From Alistipes sp. (lineage in GTDB: Bacteria; Bacteroidota; Bacteroidia; Bacteroidales; Rikenellaceae), in contig JAZULJ010000018.1 in the NCBI GenBank assembly GCA_045603045.1, forward strand, positions 1,067 through 65,066: a stretch of DNA of 64,000 nucleotides, read 5' to 3'. Numbering within the stretch: the first letter of the stretch is position 1; each line of letters starts with the position of its first letter. Made by a program: the position numbers and the translations under genes. Below are positions 1,790-38,211 of the stretch, piece after piece. The notes beneath the pieces are model-generated. The model searched no databases, was not told the origin of the DNA, and saw nothing but the letters and a program-made list of their open reading frames with translations.

Positions 1790-2731
1790 ATGAAGCGCAT
1801 TTTGGTTTTGGGTGCCGGCGGTCAGATTGGATCTGAGTTGGTACCGTATCTGCGATCAATCTACGGTGCATCGAATGTCGTTGCTACCGATGTTAAACAC
1901 AATGCTGTATTGGCCGAGGCAGGTCCGTTCGAGTCCTTGGATGCTCTCGATGCCAAGAGCTATGCCGAGCTTGTCGAGAAGTATAAAATCGACTCTATCT
2001 TCAACCTTGTAGCCCTTCTCTCGGCTACGGGCGAGAAGAACCCACAGCTTGCCATGCGTATCAACATGGGTGCGTTGGAGAACTCGTTGGAGATTGCACG
2101 CGAGAAGAACTGCGCTGTATTTACACCCAGCTCTATCGGCGCCTTCGGCGGCGACTTCCCCCGCGACAAGACCCCCCAGGATACCGTGATGCAGCCCAAC
2201 ACCATCTATGGTGTATGTAAGGTTACCGGCGAGTTGCTCTCGAACTACTACCACACACGCTTTGGCGTTGATACACGTTCGGTACGCTTCCCCGGCATCA
2301 TCTCTAACGTAACACTCCCCGGTGGCGGTACTACCGACTACGCAGTGGAGATTTACTATGAGGCTGTCAAGGGTAATAAGTTTATCTGCAACATTGCGCC
2401 CGACGTATATATGGATATGATGTATATGCCCGATGCACTGCGTGCCACAGTAGAGCTTATGGAGGCTGACCCCTCGAAGCTCAAGCACCGCAACTCGTTC
2501 AACATCGCCGCCATGAGCTTCACACCCGAGATTATCCGCGAGGTTGTAGAGCGCCACGTGCCCGGCTTCCAGATGGAGTACAATGTTGACCCCGTAAAAG
2601 ATCAGATTTCGCGCAGCTGGCCCAACTCGCTGGACGACACATGCGCACGCGAGGAGTGGGGTTGGAAGCCTCAGTGGGACCTCGAGTCAATGACTGTGGA
2701 TATGTTGGAGGCTGTACGTCGTAAATTATAG
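1790..2731 (+). CDS. tdh: L-threonine 3-dehydrogenase, extended-SDR (NAD-dependent epimerase/dehydratase) type
   Basis: GAGGQIG Rossmann motif, YGVCK catalytic YxxxK, PGGGTTDYAV motif typical of SDR-type TDH. Confidence 0.85.
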   Translation: MKRILVLGAGGQIGSELVPYLRSIYGASNVVATDVKHNAVLAEAGPFESLDALDAKSYAELVEKYKIDSIFNLVALLSATGEKNPQLAMRINMGALENSLEIAREKNCAVFTPSSIGAFGGDFPRDKTPQDTVMQPNTIYGVCKVTGELLSNYYHTRFGVDTRSVRFPGIISNVTLPGGGTTDYAVEIYYEAVKGNKFICNIAPDVYMDMMYMPDALRATVELMEADPSKLKHRNSFNIAAMSFTPEIIREVVERHVPGFQMEYNVDPVKDQISRSWPNSLDDTCAREEWGWKPQWDLESMTVDMLEAVRRKL

Positions 2732-2747
2732 GAAGATACTATAAATT

Positions 2748-2845
2748 AGGCTTAGCATTAGCCTTGCATCAATCAAAGCCCTGAATGAGAGGTACGACAA
2801 GTACTGTCCATTCAGGGCTTTTTCTCATTTCTCATTTCTCATTCT
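2748..2845 (+). repeat. Copy 1 of the dispersed two-hairpin element (family A), probably also the tdh terminator, followed by (TTTCTCA)x3
   Basis: AGGCT/AGCCT small hairpin, then AAAGCCCTGAATG-agag-GTAC-gacaa-GTAC-tgtc-CATTCAGGGCTTT at 2775-2821; homologous to the copies at 51751-51973 and 56924-57017. Confidence 0.75.
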
Positions 2846-21218: not shown

Positions 21219-21226
21219 TATCTTTG
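21219..21226 (+). promoter_or_regulatory. -7 promoter element upstream of the family B element and pdxB
   Basis: TATCTTTG. Confidence 0.6.
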
Positions 21227-21243
21227 TCCTAAAATTTATTAAC

Positions 21244-21431
21244 GGAGGCCCCGTAAATCAGGTCGAGTAGATTTTGAAATTTATTGCGAGAATATTTCTC
21301 GGCTCTCGGGAGCGCACAATGTAAGCATTGTAACCGGGCAATGGTGAGAAAAACTACAATAAGTTCAAAGGCGACCGAAACACAACCTCCCGAAGTAACG
21401 AATAATCTTTTACCAATTTATAGAACATCTC
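21244..21431 (+). repeat. ~190-bp structured intergenic element (family B, copy 1) in the apparent pdxB leader
   Basis: GGAGG...GGTCG...GGGAGCGCACAATG-TAAG-CATTGTAACC...CGACCGAAA...CCTCC...ATTTATAGAACATCTC; second copy at 37296-37487. Confidence 0.8.
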
Positions 21432-21454: not shown

Positions 21455-22450
21455 ATGAAGATAATCATCGACAGCGCCATACCCTTCATCAAGGGTGTCT
21501 TAGAACCCTATGCCGAGGTCATATACTGCGCCGGCAGAGAGTTCAACGCAGAGAACGTAAGCGACTGCGATGCGATGATTGTGCGCACACGCACACGTTG
21601 CGACGAGGCACTGCTCGCCAACTCTCGCGTTAGATTCATCGCCACCGCAACCATCGGCACCGACCATATAGACCTCAACTGGTGCAAGGCCAACGGCATA
21701 AGCGTTGCGAGTGCTGCGGGATGCAACGCACGAGGCGTCTTGCAGTGGGTGGCAGCAGCCCTCAAAGAGATATGCTCCACCGACAACAAGCACCCCGAGC
21801 ACTACACTTTGGGCGTCGTTGGCGTTGGCAACGTAGGCTCACTTGTGGCGGAGTATGCCGAGCGTTGGGGTTTCAGCGTATTGAAGTGCGACCCGCCACG
21901 CCAGGAGCGCGAAGGTGGCGACTACGTCGATATCGACACCATCGTTCGCGAGTGCAACATCATAACACTCCACACCCCATTAGACACCACAACAAAACAC
22001 CTTATAAACGAGCGAAACATAGCCCTCATGCCCGCCGATGCGACCATTATCAACGCCTCACGAGGGGGCGTTGCCGATAATCGCGCGGTGCTGCATAGCG
22101 GCCATCGCTACATATTCGACGTATGGGAACAAGAGCCGAACCTCGATATCGACATTCTGGCTGCCGCAACCCTCGCCACACCCCACATTGCGGGCTACTC
22201 GCGACAGGGCAAGGCAAATGCTACTTCAATGGTCATAAGAGCCCTCGCCCACCACTTCTCACTACCGCTGACAGAGTGGTATCCCGAGGATATGAGCGAG
22301 TGTGAACCACGCGACATTTCGTGGTCGGAGATGTGCCACACAATAGACCAATACTTTCCGATAAAAGAACAGAGCAGAGAGCTCAAATCGGCACCCGAAA
22401 AGTTCGAGACACTGCGCAATGAATACCACTACCGCGAGGAGTATTTCTAA
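21455..22450 (+). CDS. pdxB: Erythronate-4-phosphate dehydrogenase
   Basis: MIVRTRT, ATATIGTDHID, GVVGVGNVG, INASRG and TPHIAGYS; start trimmed to MKIII. Confidence 0.9.
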   Translation: MKIIIDSAIPFIKGVLEPYAEVIYCAGREFNAENVSDCDAMIVRTRTRCDEALLANSRVRFIATATIGTDHIDLNWCKANGISVASAAGCNARGVLQWVAAALKEICSTDNKHPEHYTLGVVGVGNVGSLVAEYAERWGFSVLKCDPPRQEREGGDYVDIDTIVRECNIITLHTPLDTTTKHLINERNIALMPADATIINASRGGVADNRAVLHSGHRYIFDVWEQEPNLDIDILAAATLATPHIAGYSRQGKANATSMVIRALAHHFSLPLTEWYPEDMSECEPRDISWSEMCHTIDQYFPIKEQSRELKSAPEKFETLRNEYHYREEYF

Positions 22451-35898: not shown

Positions 35899-37282
35899 AA
35901 TACCGCGTGTCCCCGTCCGCGAACAGAATCCGGTAGTGCGCGCTACCAACTTCGACGAGGTATGTTACGGCTACAACTGGGAGGAGGCATCGTTGGAGGC
36001 CACCCGCTGTCTGAATTGCAAGAATCCGCGTTGCGTGGCTGCCTGCCCCGTGAACATCCGCATCCCCGACTTCATTCACCATATCACCGAGGGTAATCTG
36101 CGAGGTGCTGCCGACACCATCCACCTCGACAGCTCGTTGCCCTCAATCTGTGGACGTGTATGTCCCCAGGAGTCGCAGTGCGAGGGCTCGTGTGTCCTCG
36201 GCATCAAGGGTGAGCCTGTGGCTATCGGCAAACTCGAGCGCTTTGTAGGCGACTGGGCCTTGGATAACTCTGCCGAAACCTCAGATGTAGTAATTACACC
36301 CAATGGCAAGCGCGTAGCCGTAGTAGGTAGTGGTCCCGCAGGTCTGGCATGTGCCAGCGACCTTGCGAAGATGGGCTACGAGGTGCATGTTTTTGAGGCG
36401 CTCCACAAACTCGGCGGCGTACTTGTTTATGGTATTCCCGAATTCCGTCTGCCCAAAGAGCGTGTTGTTGCTCGCGAGATTAACGAGGTCAAGAAGCTTG
36501 GTGTTAAGTTCGAGACCGACGTTATCATAGGTCGCACGATGACCATCGACTCACTCCTCGACAAGGAGGGCTACGACGCCGTCTTCGTAGGCTCGGGTGC
36601 CGGCCTTCCCCGCTTCATGGGCATCGAGGGTGAGAATCTCAATGGTGTGCTCTCGGCAAACGAGTTCCTCACACGCGTAAACCTCATGGGTGCCTGGAAT
36701 GCCGAGACGTCGGATACCCCCGTATATGTTGGCCGTAAGGTTGTCGTTGTTGGTGGCGGTAACGTTGCCATGGATGCTGTGCGTACCGCAAAGCGTCTTG
36801 GAGCTGAGGCCGTAATCGTATATCGTCGCGGCGAGGCGGAGCTCCCTGCACGTAAGGAGGAGGTACATCACGCCAAGGAGGAGGGCATCGAGTTCCGCAT
36901 GCTCACCAACCCCACACGTATCCTCGGCACGGAGGATGGTTGGGTTAAGGGCATCAACTGCGTGGAGATGGAACTTGGCGAGCCCGATGCAAGTGGTCGT
37001 CGCTCACCTCAGGAGAGGGCTGGCTCGGACTTCACCATCGACTGCGATGTTGTCATCATGGCACTCGGAACATCACCCAACCCGCTTATTGCCTCAACAA
37101 CAGGCGGCCTGAACATCAACCGTCGTGGCTGCATCGAGGCCGACGAGATGGGCACAACCTCTCGCGAGGGAGTATTTGCCGGCGGCGATGCCGTTACGGG
37201 CGCAGCTACGGTAATCTTGGCTATGGGCGCCGGCCGTAAGGGTGCCAAGGCCATAGACGAGTATATCAAGTCGAAGAGATAA
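35888..37282 (+). CDS. nfnB: NfnB-like large subunit (often annotated as NADPH-dependent glutamate synthase small chain)
   Basis: RCLNCKNPRCVAACPV, CGRVCPQESQCE, GSGPAG and GGGNVAMD; overlaps nfnA by 11 bp; no gltB in the window. Confidence 0.85.
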   Translation: MANKIPRVPVREQNPVVRATNFDEVCYGYNWEEASLEATRCLNCKNPRCVAACPVNIRIPDFIHHITEGNLRGAADTIHLDSSLPSICGRVCPQESQCEGSCVLGIKGEPVAIGKLERFVGDWALDNSAETSDVVITPNGKRVAVVGSGPAGLACASDLAKMGYEVHVFEALHKLGGVLVYGIPEFRLPKERVVAREINEVKKLGVKFETDVIIGRTMTIDSLLDKEGYDAVFVGSGAGLPRFMGIEGENLNGVLSANEFLTRVNLMGAWNAETSDTPVYVGRKVVVVGGGNVAMDAVRTAKRLGAEAVIVYRRGEAELPARKEEVHHAKEEGIEFRMLTNPTRILGTEDGWVKGINCVEMELGEPDASGRRSPQERAGSDFTIDCDVVIMALGTSPNPLIASTTGGLNINRRGCIEADEMGTTSREGVFAGGDAVTGAATVILAMGAGRKGAKAIDEYIKSKR

Positions 37283-37295
37283 CAAACAACTTTAA

Positions 37296-37487
37296 GGGAG
37301 ATACTATAAATTAGGTCGAGCGATTTTTGAAGGACGTTTCGAGCATATTGCCAAACTCTTTGGGAGCGCACAATGCTAAGCATTGTAACCGAGATAAGAT
37401 GAGAAGGCTACCCCAAAAAATCAAAAGCGACCGAAATATAATCTCCCGAAGAGACGAATAATTGTTTACTCATTTATAGAACATCTC
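37296..37487 (+). repeat. ~190-bp structured intergenic element (family B, copy 2) upstream of the aquaporin gene
   Basis: GGGAGAT...GGTCG...GGGAGCGCACAATG-CTAAG-CATTGTAACC...CGACCGAAA...ATCTCCC...ATTTATAGAACATCTC. Confidence 0.8.
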
Positions 37488-37503
37488 TTAACAACTTAAT
37501 ATT

Positions 37504-38211
37504 ATGGAACAGATTTTTCAGAAGAAGTATTTCGCCGAGATGCTGGGTACCTTGGTACTTGTTTTCCTCGGTTGCGGCACAGCGCTGTTTACACACGTGA
37601 ATATCGTTGCTACGGCTTTCGCCTTCGGTCTTTCGGTTGTTGCCATGGCATATACCATCGGTAACTTCTCGGGTTGCCATATCAACCCCGCCATCACCTT
37701 TGCGGCATGGCTTTCAAAGCGTATCTCAGGTTTCGACGCGTGCTTGTACGTTATCTTCCAGTTCATCGGCGGTATCCTCGGAACACTCCTTTTGTTCATG
37801 ATTGTCCCCGAGACCAAGGATTGTGCATTTGGCGCTAACTTAGCCCCCGTTGAGGAGATAAACCTCTCGGGCAACGTCGAATATTACCTCGGCACAGCCT
37901 TTGGCGCAGAGGTGCTCTTTACCTTCATCTTCGTATTGGTAGTATTGGCTACTACCGATGAGAAGCATGGTGCAGGTAACAAGGCAGGTCTCTACATCGG
38001 CTTAACCCTCGCGCTGGTACACCTCGCCTGCATCGGTATCACCGGCACATCGGTTAACCCCGCACGTTCATTTGGCCCGGCACTCTTTGCTGGCGACGAC
38101 TACCTTAGCCAGATATGGATTTTCTTGTTAGCACCCACCATTGGTGCTGCTATTGCAGCAGGCGTTTGGGCGCTGTTTACCGACAAGGTTAAGTTCAATG
38201 TAACCAAGTAA
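37504..38211 (+). CDS. MIP family channel (AqpZ-like aquaporin)
   Basis: Two NPA motifs (GCHINPA, TSVNPARS); His in the ar/R position. Confidence 0.92.
   Translation: MEQIFQKKYFAEMLGTLVLVFLGCGTALFTHVNIVATAFAFGLSVVAMAYTIGNFSGCHINPAITFAAWLSKRISGFDACLYVIFQFIGGILGTLLLFMIVPETKDCAFGANLAPVEEINLSGNVEYYLGTAFGAEVLFTFIFVLVVLATTDEKHGAGNKAGLYIGLTLALVHLACIGITGTSVNPARSFGPALFAGDDYLSQIWIFLLAPTIGAAIAAGVWALFTDKVKFNVTK

Follow-up and report, generated by a model that had tools for sequence, protein, structure and literature searches.

A ~190-bp miniature inverted-repeat element found predominantly upstream of start codons in Alistipes genomes

Two copies of a repeat upstream of pdxB and an aquaporin gene

The window analysed in this work is a stretch of 64,000 nucleotides from the genome of an Alistipes sp. 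(GenBank assembly GCA_045603045.1, contig JAZULJ010000018.1), and coordinates refer to it unless stated otherwise. It carries two full copies of a repeat, designated family B, both on the plus strand and each followed at a short distance by a protein-coding gene in the same orientation. Copy 1 (21243/21244–21431; nhmmer E = 1.6e-51, and alignment with copy 2) occupies the position of a leader in front of pdxB, the gene of 4-phosphoerythronate dehydrogenase (21455–22450, plus strand; NF001309, E = 9e-101). Copy 2 (37296–37487; nhmmer E = 7.9e-50, with terminal repeat matches at both ends) lies between a gltD-like gene, whose stop codon is at 37282, and a gene for an aquaporin Z/MIP channel (37504–38211, plus strand; NF003838, E = 3e-54). 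The distance from the 3' end of the repeat to the ATG is 23 nt for pdxB (ATG at 21455) and 16 nt for the aquaporin gene (ATG at 37504).

The boundaries that a first-pass annotation of this DNA had assigned to the two copies were exact and coincide with the tips of terminal inverted repeats (TIRs), and every one of the ordered blocks that it listed as shared was found in the pairwise alignment of the copies, which are 83% identical over 239 alignment columns. Its statement that the element occurs twice holds for full copies, while the window also contains a solo remnant of a 5' TIR, GGAAGATACTATAAATTAG, at 2731–2749 on the plus strand (pattern match at C18:3797–3815 in contig numbering). This remnant lies right after a stop codon and adjoins a "family A" hairpin.

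Copy 1 begins with a diverged 5' TIR, CGGAGGCCCCGTAAATCAG (21243–21261, plus strand; aligned to the consensus GGGAGGTTCTATAAATTAG), the tip of which is degenerate (CGGAGG). It is followed by a hairpin domain of five helices (21275–21367, plus strand), defined by the covariation-supported structure of alignment A3 and mapped from the corresponding A3 row; at the apex of this structure, ACAATG (21316–21321) is paired with CATTGT (21326–21331). A conserved unpaired A-rich tail containing AAGGCGACCGAAAC and ACGAATAAT (21368–21412, plus strand) leads to the 3' TIR, CCAATTTATAGAACATCTC (21413–21431, plus strand; found as a TIR pattern match on the minus strand, C18:22479–22497). Copy 2, on the plus strand, has a 5' TIR, GGGAGATACTATAAATTAG (37296–37314; pattern match with one mismatch), a hairpin domain (37328–37423) with the apex ACAATG (37370–37375) paired with CATTGT (37381–37386), both mapped from the A3 row, and a 3' TIR, CTCATTTATAGAACATCTC (37469–37487; minus-strand pattern match with two mismatches). 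It is flanked by an identical target-site duplication (TSD), TTAA, at 37292–37295 on the left and 37488–37491 on the right.

A Bacteroidetes-type -7 promoter box, TATCTTTG, is predicted from the sequence upstream of copy 1 (21219–21226, plus strand). The placement of copy 1 between this box and the pdxB ATG, proposed in the first-pass annotation, agrees with synteny: in the closest relative, genome G012, about 190 bp are missing at the orthologous pdxB site, and the TATCTTTG box is conserved.

Family B is a miniature transposon with a patchy distribution

Family B, about 190 bp in length, is a MITE, a non-autonomous DNA transposon. This identity follows from its TIRs, 4-bp TSDs, empty orthologous sites and patchy multi-copy distribution, and the "MITE-like mobile structure" considered in the first-pass annotation was thus essentially right. 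The elements are 186–200 bp long, as befits bacterial MITEs, which stay below about 300–500 bp, and carry at both ends a 19-bp TIR with the consensus GGKAKRTTCTATAAATTAG; position 5 consistently distinguishes the left TIR from the right (AGG versus ATG), the two being nearly identical. No conserved open reading frame is present in family-B elements, and copies differ by indels whose lengths are not multiples of three. A perfect 4-bp TSD was found for 52 of 79 TIR pairs; the duplications are A/T-rich and mostly of the form TNNA (TTAA, TATA, TAAA, TTTA, TACA, TGTA, ATAA and similar).

Comparison with G012 revealed the absence of the element at hflX, lipo, pyrC, prot, vWA, TPR, apt and pdxB (7–8 orthologous sites). 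The pdxB site of G012 retains a solo TIR-like remnant, and at least this "empty" site is therefore a deletion and not a virgin site.

The first-pass annotation had suggested counting copies genome-wide with nhmmer, and the count revealed a dispersed repeat, far beyond chance. The 1.7-Mb genome from which the window derives contains 10 full-length copies (E-values from 1e-36 to 1e-51 in iterated nhmmer) and about five fragments recovered by the same search. BLAST detected the element in 7 of 25 genomes of the genus, where the copy number ranges between species from 0, as in the closest relative G012, to more than 30. Searches with the TIR pattern yielded 65, 48, 34, 33 and 18 matches in five genomes, versus 0–2 for a reversed-pattern control, and the exact TIR is present at a minimum of 120 loci in metagenome-assembled genomes (MAGs) of Alistipes, "Bacteroidaceae", Prevotella/Alloprevotella and Ca. 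Equimonas. In many Bacteroidales MAGs from herbivore guts, the same TIRs enclose unrelated cores, giving elements of 61–482 bp; the longer of these TIR-bounded members (235–482 bp) were considered as possible coding elements and rejected, since no credible open reading frame is present in them and their cores are unrelated or duplicated repeats. No match was obtained among viral contigs, plasmids and phages, no recurrent sequence adjoins the solo TIRs, and an exact-protein look-up for strain-level polymorphism found the protein not on record.

Search for a partner transposase and comparison with known elements

No autonomous insertion sequence with matching TIRs was found in the 120 loci, in 61 genomes of the genus, in searches with PF01609 and NF033539, or among plasmids, phages and viral contigs, most of the searched genomes being fragmented MAGs, which often lose insertion sequence copies. 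PF01609 (DDE_Tnp_1) was absent from seven of eight MITE-rich genomes, its single match being an IS4-family element with unrelated ends (…CTGTCCGRTAAAA), and IS1380-type transposases were absent from 10 MITE-bearing genomes. Several candidates were rejected. The IS4-family transposase of genome G008 (locus L228) has a TIR-like site upstream of the ATG matching at 15 of 19 positions, against best background matches of 12–14 of 19 in similar loci, and was discarded because the true ends of this insertion sequence are TATTACTGTCCGATAAAA. A long TIR pair in genome G013, from Alistipes sp. RGIG4013, spans a 2.36-kb interval of ordinary genes (an ECF sigma factor and others) with no transposase, and a 1.3-kb TIR pair at locus L138 consists of two MITEs around kdsA.

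Elements of the IS5 group have ends beginning with GG and generate a 4-bp duplication of a YTAR target, the TIR of IS5 itself being GGAAGGTGCGAATAAG. Family B has in common with this group the 4-bp target duplication and a TIR of 16–19 bp starting with GG, and about 10 of the first 16 positions of its TIR presumably match that of IS5, which we take as a lead. As a source of the MITE, the IS5 group fits less well in two respects: the targets of family B are TNNA or A/T-rich and not YTAR, and no DDE_Tnp_1 transposase flanked by family-B TIRs was found in the eight MITE-rich genomes.

The ERIC/IRU elements of enterobacteria and the Correia elements (CREE/NEMIS) of Neisseria are MITEs which are co-transcribed with neighbouring genes, and the effects of ERIC on mRNA depend on its orientation (PMC2229807). 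Like them, family B is shorter than about 200 bp, A+T-rich and non-coding, has TIRs and a target duplication, and forms many dispersed intergenic copies with filled versus empty sites between relatives; the long hairpin in the ERIC and Correia transcripts has a counterpart in family B that is predicted from sequence. On the other hand, family B has a different sequence, a 4-bp TNNA-like duplication instead of TA, no known partner insertion sequence, and a host phylum which, unlike the hosts of ERIC and Correia, initiates translation without Shine–Dalgarno sequences. PMC2229807 does not describe for ERIC or Correia elements what is observed for family B, a strong docking at 3–10 nt before start codons in which one end is turned towards the gene. 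Among Bacteroidales, MITEPgRS, MITE239 and MITE464/BrickBuilt of Porphyromonas gingivalis are described MITEs which, compared by description, are non-autonomous inverted-repeat elements as family B is; the hosts of family B are Alistipes and herbivore-gut MAGs, and the abstracts on the P. gingivalis elements report no start-codon docking (PMC2575886, PMC5771137). A literature search revealed no paper containing the TIR string GGKAKRTTCTATAAATTAG or describing an Alistipes MITE, and family B is an undescribed miniature mobile element of gut Bacteroidales.

Docking in front of start codons

The most unusual feature of family B is its position relative to genes. A co-oriented ATG is present within about 30 nt of the 3' end in 31 of 41 copies, and within that distance of the 5' end in no more than three. 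Random orientation relative to genes, which the first-pass annotation held, together with a lack of transcription through the element, to speak against a cis-regulatory role, was not what was found, the orientation being strongly one-way (31:3, P≈8e-7). Since the two TIRs are nearly identical, this bias must come from the core. The distance from the TIR tip to the ATG has a mode of 3–7 nt, and 22 of 41 copies are located within 10 nt of the ATG, versus 6.5% under the null model (P≈6e-16). In most copies, the 3' end takes the place of the sequence immediately upstream of the ATG, and the 4-bp flank of many G013 copies adjoins the start codon itself or overlaps it.

The genes downstream include recA, typA, prfA, alaS, ruvA, ettA, the gene of topoisomerase IV subunit A, dnaG, pdxB and aqpZ; the tabulated set contains both ordinary and essential genes (recA, dnaG, alaS, prfA) and bears out the earlier remark that the downstream genes are functionally unrelated. 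A co-oriented upstream stop codon is present no more than 25 nt from the 5' end in about 14 of 41 copies, and several docked copies are located in operon spacers of 10–30 nt. Docking on genes that include essential ones, and in such tiny operon spacers, suggests that the element is transcribed through and that its end acts as the translation-initiation region. A sequence shared at docked genes, ATGGCAGA, was considered as a part of the repeat and rejected; the genes concerned (recA, ettA, prfA, gyrB) are unrelated and have a common Met-Ala-Asp/Glu N-terminus.

Such a distribution could arise either because insertions at other positions do not persist or because the element is delivered to start codons. 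The latter would imply active homing, in which the transposition machinery or a coupled host process recognises the context of the start codon and inserts the element in a fixed orientation, with selection playing a minor role. The short modal distance, the flanks abutting the ATG, and the large excess of copies within 10 nt are consistent with such targeting, and MITEs which share the TIRs and have unrelated cores are enriched near starts as well, with about 14 of 31 within 40 nt compared to about 24–28% under the null model. Moreover, ettA and prfA carry docked copies in different species, and these copies are closer to others of their own genome than to each other; this resemblance to the resident subfamily could mean repeated independent insertions at one start codon, i.e., homing; the consistent difference between the TIRs at position 5 could provide polarity.

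Other observations argue against homing. Docked copies account for 6 of 27 copies with a perfect TSD, versus 22 of 35 of the others (Fisher P = 0.002), and 21 of the 27 perfect-TSD copies are located more than 12 nt away from any start. A perfect TSD is presumed to be a proxy for recent insertion, the best one available here, and the mostly undocked position of these presumably recent copies points to selection rather than homing. In addition, the consensus of the TSDs is a simple A/T-rich TNNA, the flank profile contains no ATG signal beyond that created by docking, the TIRs are nearly symmetric, and no machinery was identified in the searches for a TIR-matched transposase. Docking by selection is therefore favoured, and active homing is considered unlikely, although it is the strongest of the competing explanations. 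Most start-docked copies have no perfect TSD, and many of them have wholly mismatched 4-bp flanks although their TIRs are intact, a combination which simple age does not explain.

Docking could also be understood if the element were a portable promoter, that is, if the downstream gene were driven by a promoter that faces outward and lies close to the 3' end of the element. Insertion sequences of Bacteroides reportedly provide genes with outward promoters immediately before the start codon, as in the activation of cfiA, and several family-B copies are located in operon spacers without room for another promoter. However, the forward strand of the element contains no conserved TAnnTTTG promoter, and not a single copy has a conserved TTTG…TAnnTTTG on this strand; near-matches recur only on the reverse strand (TATATTTC and TATCTTTC), facing away from the gene. 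The element-free relative shares the native -7 box that precedes the element at pdxB and at the lipoprotein gene, and at the thiD, TPR and pyrC copies a promoter-like box lies in the gap that separates element and gene. These data make a portable promoter improbable.

A conserved hairpin on the gene-sense strand

The alignment of 41 copies revealed an interrupted internal hairpin of about 95 nt which is maintained by compensatory changes; the A-rich tail behind it is conserved and unpaired. For the 25 pairs of this hairpin, 90.4% of the cells are paired compared to 75.0% in shuffled alignments, none of 500 of which reached 90.4%, and to 43–54% in a control with slid partners. Both sides changed in 22 of the 25 pairs, and 154 compensatory cells were counted versus 41±5. 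The gene-sense strand folds better than its complement (alifold -11.3 for the forward and -2.9 for the reverse strand), has 83 G·U against 33 A·C pairs, and is purine-rich, with A exceeding T in 41 of 41 cores and G exceeding C in 40 of 41. Within the tail, the block GCGACCGAAAT shows at least 90% conservation in the 41 copies, and no pairing partner for it was found in the alignment.

The long hairpin with compensatory stems described in the first-pass annotation is thus real and covarying, while two of the three stems it named were wrong. The apex pairing of ACAATG with CATTGT is present and covaries, whereas GGTCG/CGACC is unsupported in the 41-copy alignment, as is the pairing of the 5' GGGAG with an internal CTCCC; this GGGAG matches the 3'-terminal CTCCC within the TIR. 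A known Rfam motif, for which the first-pass annotation had proposed a search, was not found: at the gathering threshold Rfam gives only tRNAs in the window, and at E ≤ 10 there is no match on either copy. A TPP riboswitch, considered as a candidate for the interval that separates thiD from its copy of the element, had no Rfam support either. No intrinsic terminator is present on either strand of the element.

A fold whose conservation on the gene-sense strand is accompanied by covariation, a fixed position and orientation relative to start codons, and a highly conserved single-stranded tail would all be expected of a dedicated, vertically inherited and non-mobile leader RNA, similar to a riboswitch or attenuator, and an "unrecognised cis-regulatory RNA" was the other option offered in the first-pass annotation. 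The empty sites and TSDs already go most of the way to refuting this reading, which we regard as very improbable. The downstream genes are functionally unrelated, the same genes occur without the element in the closest relative, the element has 19-bp TIRs with 4-bp TSDs, genomes of the genus differ in copy number, from 0 to more than 30, unrelated cores are found between the same ends, and Rfam gives no family match.

Transposons of the IS200/IS605 type have neither terminal inverted repeats nor a target duplication, and palindrome-associated elements (PATEs) derived from them are characterised by subterminal hairpins and a fixed short motif 5' of the left end. Such a PATE, which a Y1 transposase would move in single-stranded form, would naturally yield strand bias and hairpins and so fit the strong orientation bias, the hairpin-rich structure, and the strand asymmetry (G·U in excess of A·C, and a better fold on one strand), but it is already contradicted by the presence of both TIRs and 4-bp TSDs in family B and is the least probable explanation of all.

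Proposed origin of docking and its implications

Taken as a whole, the account which we consider probable is that family B is a MITE moved in trans, that its docked copies are co-transcribed with the adjacent genes, and that docking and orientation result mainly from the survival of insertions. Judging from its anatomy, the element would be mobilised by a DDE transposase encoded elsewhere. Docked copies would be transcribed together with the downstream gene, forming part of its 5' leader or of intercistronic RNA; their A/U-rich 3' TIR may serve as a Shine–Dalgarno-independent landing region of the kind used by Bacteroidetes, and the hairpin would be an RNA structure, either tolerated or useful for transcript stability or processing. 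Docking and orientation would then mainly mirror which insertions survive, those elsewhere being lost faster. An inverted copy would set a pyrimidine-rich untranslated stretch with more C than G, together with the base of the hairpin, beside the start codon, which is likely to be polar or inhibitory.

There is a smaller, though appreciable, chance that family B goes beyond a tolerated parasite, and that either its transposition machinery homes, placing the element in a set orientation a few bases before start codons, or the element has become a domesticated portable leader. In the case of a portable leader, ribosomes would find in the A/U-rich terminal repeat a landing pad that is ready for use and independent of the Shine–Dalgarno sequence, and the covarying hairpin with the conserved tail would be an RNA module. 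If homing or domestication proved true, the expression of recA, dnaG, alaS and prfA in some Alistipes would depend on the element, and targeted insertion would be a new example of the choice of safe-harbour sites by a small transposon.

Bacteroidetes start translation without a Shine–Dalgarno sequence, and what makes a good initiation region in this phylum is still being worked out. Family B offers a natural experiment in this respect, since in several species a single 19-nt sequence has taken the place of the native upstream region in dozens of genes that are unrelated and in part essential, and its strong one-way orientation provides a handle on the polarity of leaders (Rho, RNases) in Bacteroidetes. 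In terms of annotation, the family accounts for many long "leaders" and assembly breaks in MAGs of gut Bacteroidales, and it marks recent gene flow between Alistipes, Prevotella-like and other herbivore-gut lineages.

Copies of the family-B element

Family B, the ~190-bp long-hairpin element, has a hairpin that covaries on the sense strand, and its members sit shortly before start codons, docked in a single orientation. The two copies in the window lie where the first-pass annotation had placed them: copy 1 at 21243/21244–21431, with the pdxB ATG at 21455, 23 nt downstream, and copy 2 at 37296–37487, with the aquaporin ATG at 37504, 16 nt downstream. Pairwise alignment of the two gave 83% column identity and contained all the shared blocks that had been claimed. 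The genome-wide copy count that the same annotation had asked for, performed by iterated nhmmer on the genome whose contig C18 holds the window (G000; 1.73 Mb, 51 contigs, 51% G+C), revealed 10 full-length copies, with E values of 1e-36 to 1e-51, and about five further copies that are truncated or carry an internal deletion. Family B is a genuine dispersed repeat family, and chance likeness can be dismissed.

A single 19-nt sequence, GGKAKRTTCTATAAATTAG (the terminal inverted repeat, TIR), bounds the element at both ends, as two copies in inverted orientation. A solo 5' TIR, GGAAGATACTATAAATTAG, is present at window positions 2731–2749, directly after a stop codon, and is followed immediately by a terminator-like hairpin of family A, another repeat family of the window, along with three TTTCTCA repeats; by its appearance it is a truncated copy that the family A repeat has overwritten or lies next to. 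The thiD copy (G000 contig C22, 13872–14036; locus L042 1495–1700, minus strand) lacks its 5' end; the terminator-like hairpin AAAGACGACTTGCAAGTCGTCTTTTTTT precedes it, and a promoter-like TATCTTTG box lies 13 nt after it. The appearance of the ~150-nt thiD leader suggested a thiamine riboswitch, which was rejected as an Rfam match was absent.

Ends, target duplications and distribution

A search for the TIR pattern in 61 genomes of the genus, allowing up to 3 mismatches, found 65, 48, 34, 33, and 18 matches in five genomes and about 10 in three others; the majority had 0–2, equal to the reversed-pattern control. Nearly all matches form inward-facing pairs, 170–180 nt apart. In a collection of species-representative genomes the exact pattern was present in at least 120 stretches, and the MAGs among the matches listed are labelled Alistipes, ‘Bacteroidaceae’, Prevotella, Alloprevotella, Prevotellamassilia, Ca. 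Equimonas, and uncultured Bacteroidales, mostly from the guts of ruminants, horses, and other herbivores. Searches of the plasmid, phage, and viral collections did not find the element.

Among the matches listed, a perfect 4-bp direct repeat flanks 52 of 79 TIR pairs, for example TTAA, TATA, TAAA, TTTA, TACA, TGTA, or ATAA, with a target that is mostly TNNA; copy 2 is flanked by TTAA on both sides and the apt copy by TACA. The same TIRs bound unrelated cores, with sizes of 61 to 482 bp and a mode of 185–190 bp among the matches listed, and therefore the ends, not the core, define the mobile unit. In the Bacteroidales MAG W1P33.019, two longer members (L112 1901–2238, 338 bp; L167 6130–6542, 413 bp) have a different core, in which two or three copies of a ~90-nt module (…GCCGAGCCGCAGCCAATCTTCGGCGAAGCC…) without an ORF show internal tandem growth. 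Most matches in another genome of the genus, G003 (many loci, e.g., L030, L037, and L043), comprise only the 3' ~60 nt, that is, the conserved tail and the 3' TIR, and a shorter derivative family based on this 3' module seems to have multiplied there.

The closest relative, G012, whose pdxB protein is 82% identical to that of G000, contains no family-B copies at all, and its alignment runs unbroken over the junction left by deleting the element at hflX, a lipoprotein gene, pyrC, a protease-like gene, a vWA gene, a TPR regulator gene, and apt. Before the apt copy (about C46:4520–4760 in G000) come runs of short tandem repeats (GAGTACA several times, TTTTTGC three times) and G-rich stretches, and the G012 spacer at the apt position is much longer, different, and repeat-rich. 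At pdxB, both flanks align in G012, the divergent gene upstream and the TATCTTTG box among them, with about 190 extra bases in G000. The G012 pdxB leader (L047, about 1455–1476) retains CTAAATTTATCGAACAACCCC, which by eye, with two 1-nt indels, resembles the 3' TIR; judging from this remnant, the element was probably lost there by deletion between AATTTAT microhomologies, and the site may never have been empty.

Classification and search for a partner transposase

The first-pass annotation had offered either a MITE-like mobile structure or a cis-regulatory RNA, and it is the former that stood, given the TIRs, target duplications, and empty sites: family B is a MITE, part of a previously undescribed MITE superfamily of gut Bacteroidales. 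Four MITE features were found, namely small size without a coding frame, TIRs, a target duplication of fixed length, and dispersed copies with filled and empty sites; the fifth, a partner IS, was not found in the genomes and collections searched. Neither copy 1 nor copy 2 matched Rfam even at E≤10, which rules out membership in an Rfam family; no paper containing the TIR sequence or describing an Alistipes MITE was found in the literature searched. An IS200/IS605-type element is ruled out by the presence of inverted repeats and target duplications. In its 4-bp duplication and in a repeat that opens with GG, the element comes closest to the IS5 group, but assignment to it was rejected, since the target differs from YTAR and a transposase was not found.

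No longer TIR-bounded element was detected in G000. Of two candidate autonomous elements, a 2.36-kb TIR pair in the genus genome G013 encloses ordinary genes, and a 1.3-kb pair in locus L138 consists of two MITEs around kdsA. Members of 235–482 bp among the matches listed lack a credible ORF, and no recurrent sequence adjoins the solo TIRs. The PF01609 domain (IS4/IS5-type DDE) is absent in seven of eight MITE-rich genomes, and its sole match was rejected as a partner, being an IS4-family transposase (NF033592, DUF4372+DDE_Tnp_1) with true ends, …CTGTCCGRTAAAA…, unrelated to the MITE TIRs. This IS, on contig C297 of the genus genome G008 (L228; also L229–L258), has the ends TATTACTGTCCGATAAAA and was present in 51 of the 301 genomes sampled from the order, with up to 6 identical copies per genome. 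IS1380-type transposases were absent too from the MITE-bearing genomes searched. The absence of a transposase is weak evidence, because most of the genomes are fragmented MAGs, which often lose IS copies.

Secondary structure

RNAalifold, applied to the ten G000 copies alone, supported little past the apex stem ACAATG/CATTGT, a pairing of the first-pass annotation that is confirmed. A larger alignment of 41 non-identical copies from G000, genus relatives, and further MAGs (mean identity 66%) yielded a nested fold of five helices on the gene-sense strand, in which 25 pairs are formed in 90.4% of cells, against 75.0±0.7% in column shuffles (observed value reached in 0 of 500) and 43–54% when partners were slid by 1–3 columns. 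Both sides change in 22 of the 25 pairs, and compensatory cells number 154 versus 41±5 in shuffles, bearing out the proposed long hairpin with compensatory changes. The TIR tips covary as well, GGG…CCC alternating with GGT…ACC. Two pairings of the first-pass annotation were not retained: GGTCG/CGACC is not kept where its 5' side varies, and the 5' GGGAG, assigned to an internal CTCCC, pairs instead with the 3' tip. The alifold score is −11.3 for the gene-sense strand and a much worse −2.9 for the reverse strand, and there are 83 G·U pairs to 33 A·C pairs; thus, selection on a single-stranded form more likely acts on the sense strand. An unpaired A-rich tail follows the hairpin on its 3' side; its block GCGACCGAAAT is at least 90% conserved, and no pairing partner for it was found.

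Position relative to start codons

Of 41 family-B copies from eight genus genomes, each at a different locus, 31 have a 3' end that lies no more than ~30 nt from a co-oriented ORF's ATG (P≈1.5e-12 if the null is assumed to be 0.23), and 22 lie within 10 nt (P≈6e-16). The null, taken from the all-A/T intergenic tetramers of G000, is the fraction of them that lie as near a start codon (6.5% for 10 nt, 20% for 26 nt) and depends on crude ORF-based gene calls. The 5' end is equally close to a divergent ATG in at most 3 copies, only one of them convincing (orientation, two-sided P≈8e-7), and random orientation, named beforehand as counting against the proposal, was not seen. According to the exact end registers, the commonest distance from the end to the ATG is 3–7 nt, at which the 4-bp flank touches the ATG or overlaps it by a single base, the final A of the flank. 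Only one copy adjoins a convergent gene end, with convergent spacers making up 23% of intergenic length. About 14 copies have, within 25 nt of their 5' end, the stop codon of an upstream gene in the same orientation; these were inserted into operon spacers of originally about 10–30 nt, most clearly at the vWA locus compared with G012.

As had been noted for the first two, the docked genes are functionally unrelated, and many are essential: they include pdxB, aquaporin Z, apt, a vWA protein gene, and two lipoprotein genes in G000, and recA, typA, prfA, alaS, ruvA, ettA, topoisomerase IV subunit A, and dnaG in relatives. MITEs with the same TIRs and unrelated cores are somewhat enriched near starts, at larger distances of 12–39 nt.

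Survival, targeting and expression

The two TIRs are almost identical, with a consistent difference at position 5 (AGG left, ATG right), and therefore the orientation bias should stem from the core. Its layout is asymmetric: the hairpin occupies the 5' two-thirds and the unpaired tail sits beside the 3' end. The sense strand of the core is purine-loaded (A>T in 41 of 41 copies, G>C in 40 of 41). An inverted copy would give the leader an untranslated stretch that is rich in pyrimidines, with C>G, and the base of the hairpin would come to lie within about 30 nt of where the element ends; such insertions could be polar (Rho-type) or inhibit initiation, and hence be lost.

A perfect 4-bp duplication was taken as the best proxy for recent insertion. 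Docking within 12 nt was observed for 6 of 27 copies with a perfect duplication versus 22 of 35 without a matching one (Fisher P=0.002); recent-looking copies are thus mostly undocked, which speaks for survival, and not targeting, as the chief cause of docking. Homing, in which insertion is targeted to start codons, has this result against it and appears unlikely, although in many docked copies the 4-bp flanks differ at 3–4 positions beside intact 19-nt ends, which simple ageing does not explain. Homing could also explain the ettA copies of two species and the prfA copies of two species, whose similarity (0.74) is no higher than that of random pairs, the G013 ettA copy being nearer to other G013 copies (0.80–0.84). 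Such own-genome resemblance could have arisen by concerted evolution, or because one start codon was hit independently more than once.

Since essential and distal operon genes still work with the element a few bases before their ATG, transcription must cross it, or start inside it, in this orientation, and the 3' TIR would have to be an acceptable initiation region. Bacteroidetes initiate translation without a Shine–Dalgarno sequence and prefer A/U-rich unstructured leaders. No conserved TTTG…TAnnTTTG promoter was found on the forward strand of the element, and no intrinsic terminator on either strand. The native −7 box upstream of the element at pdxB and at a lipoprotein gene is conserved in G012; read-through of docked copies from the native promoter would therefore be the simplest reading. 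Family B may in this respect be likened to the co-transcribed bacterial MITEs ERIC, which has an orientation-dependent effect on mRNA, and Correia elements (PMC2229807). The family is a natural test bed for Shine–Dalgarno-independent initiation and leader polarity in Bacteroidetes.
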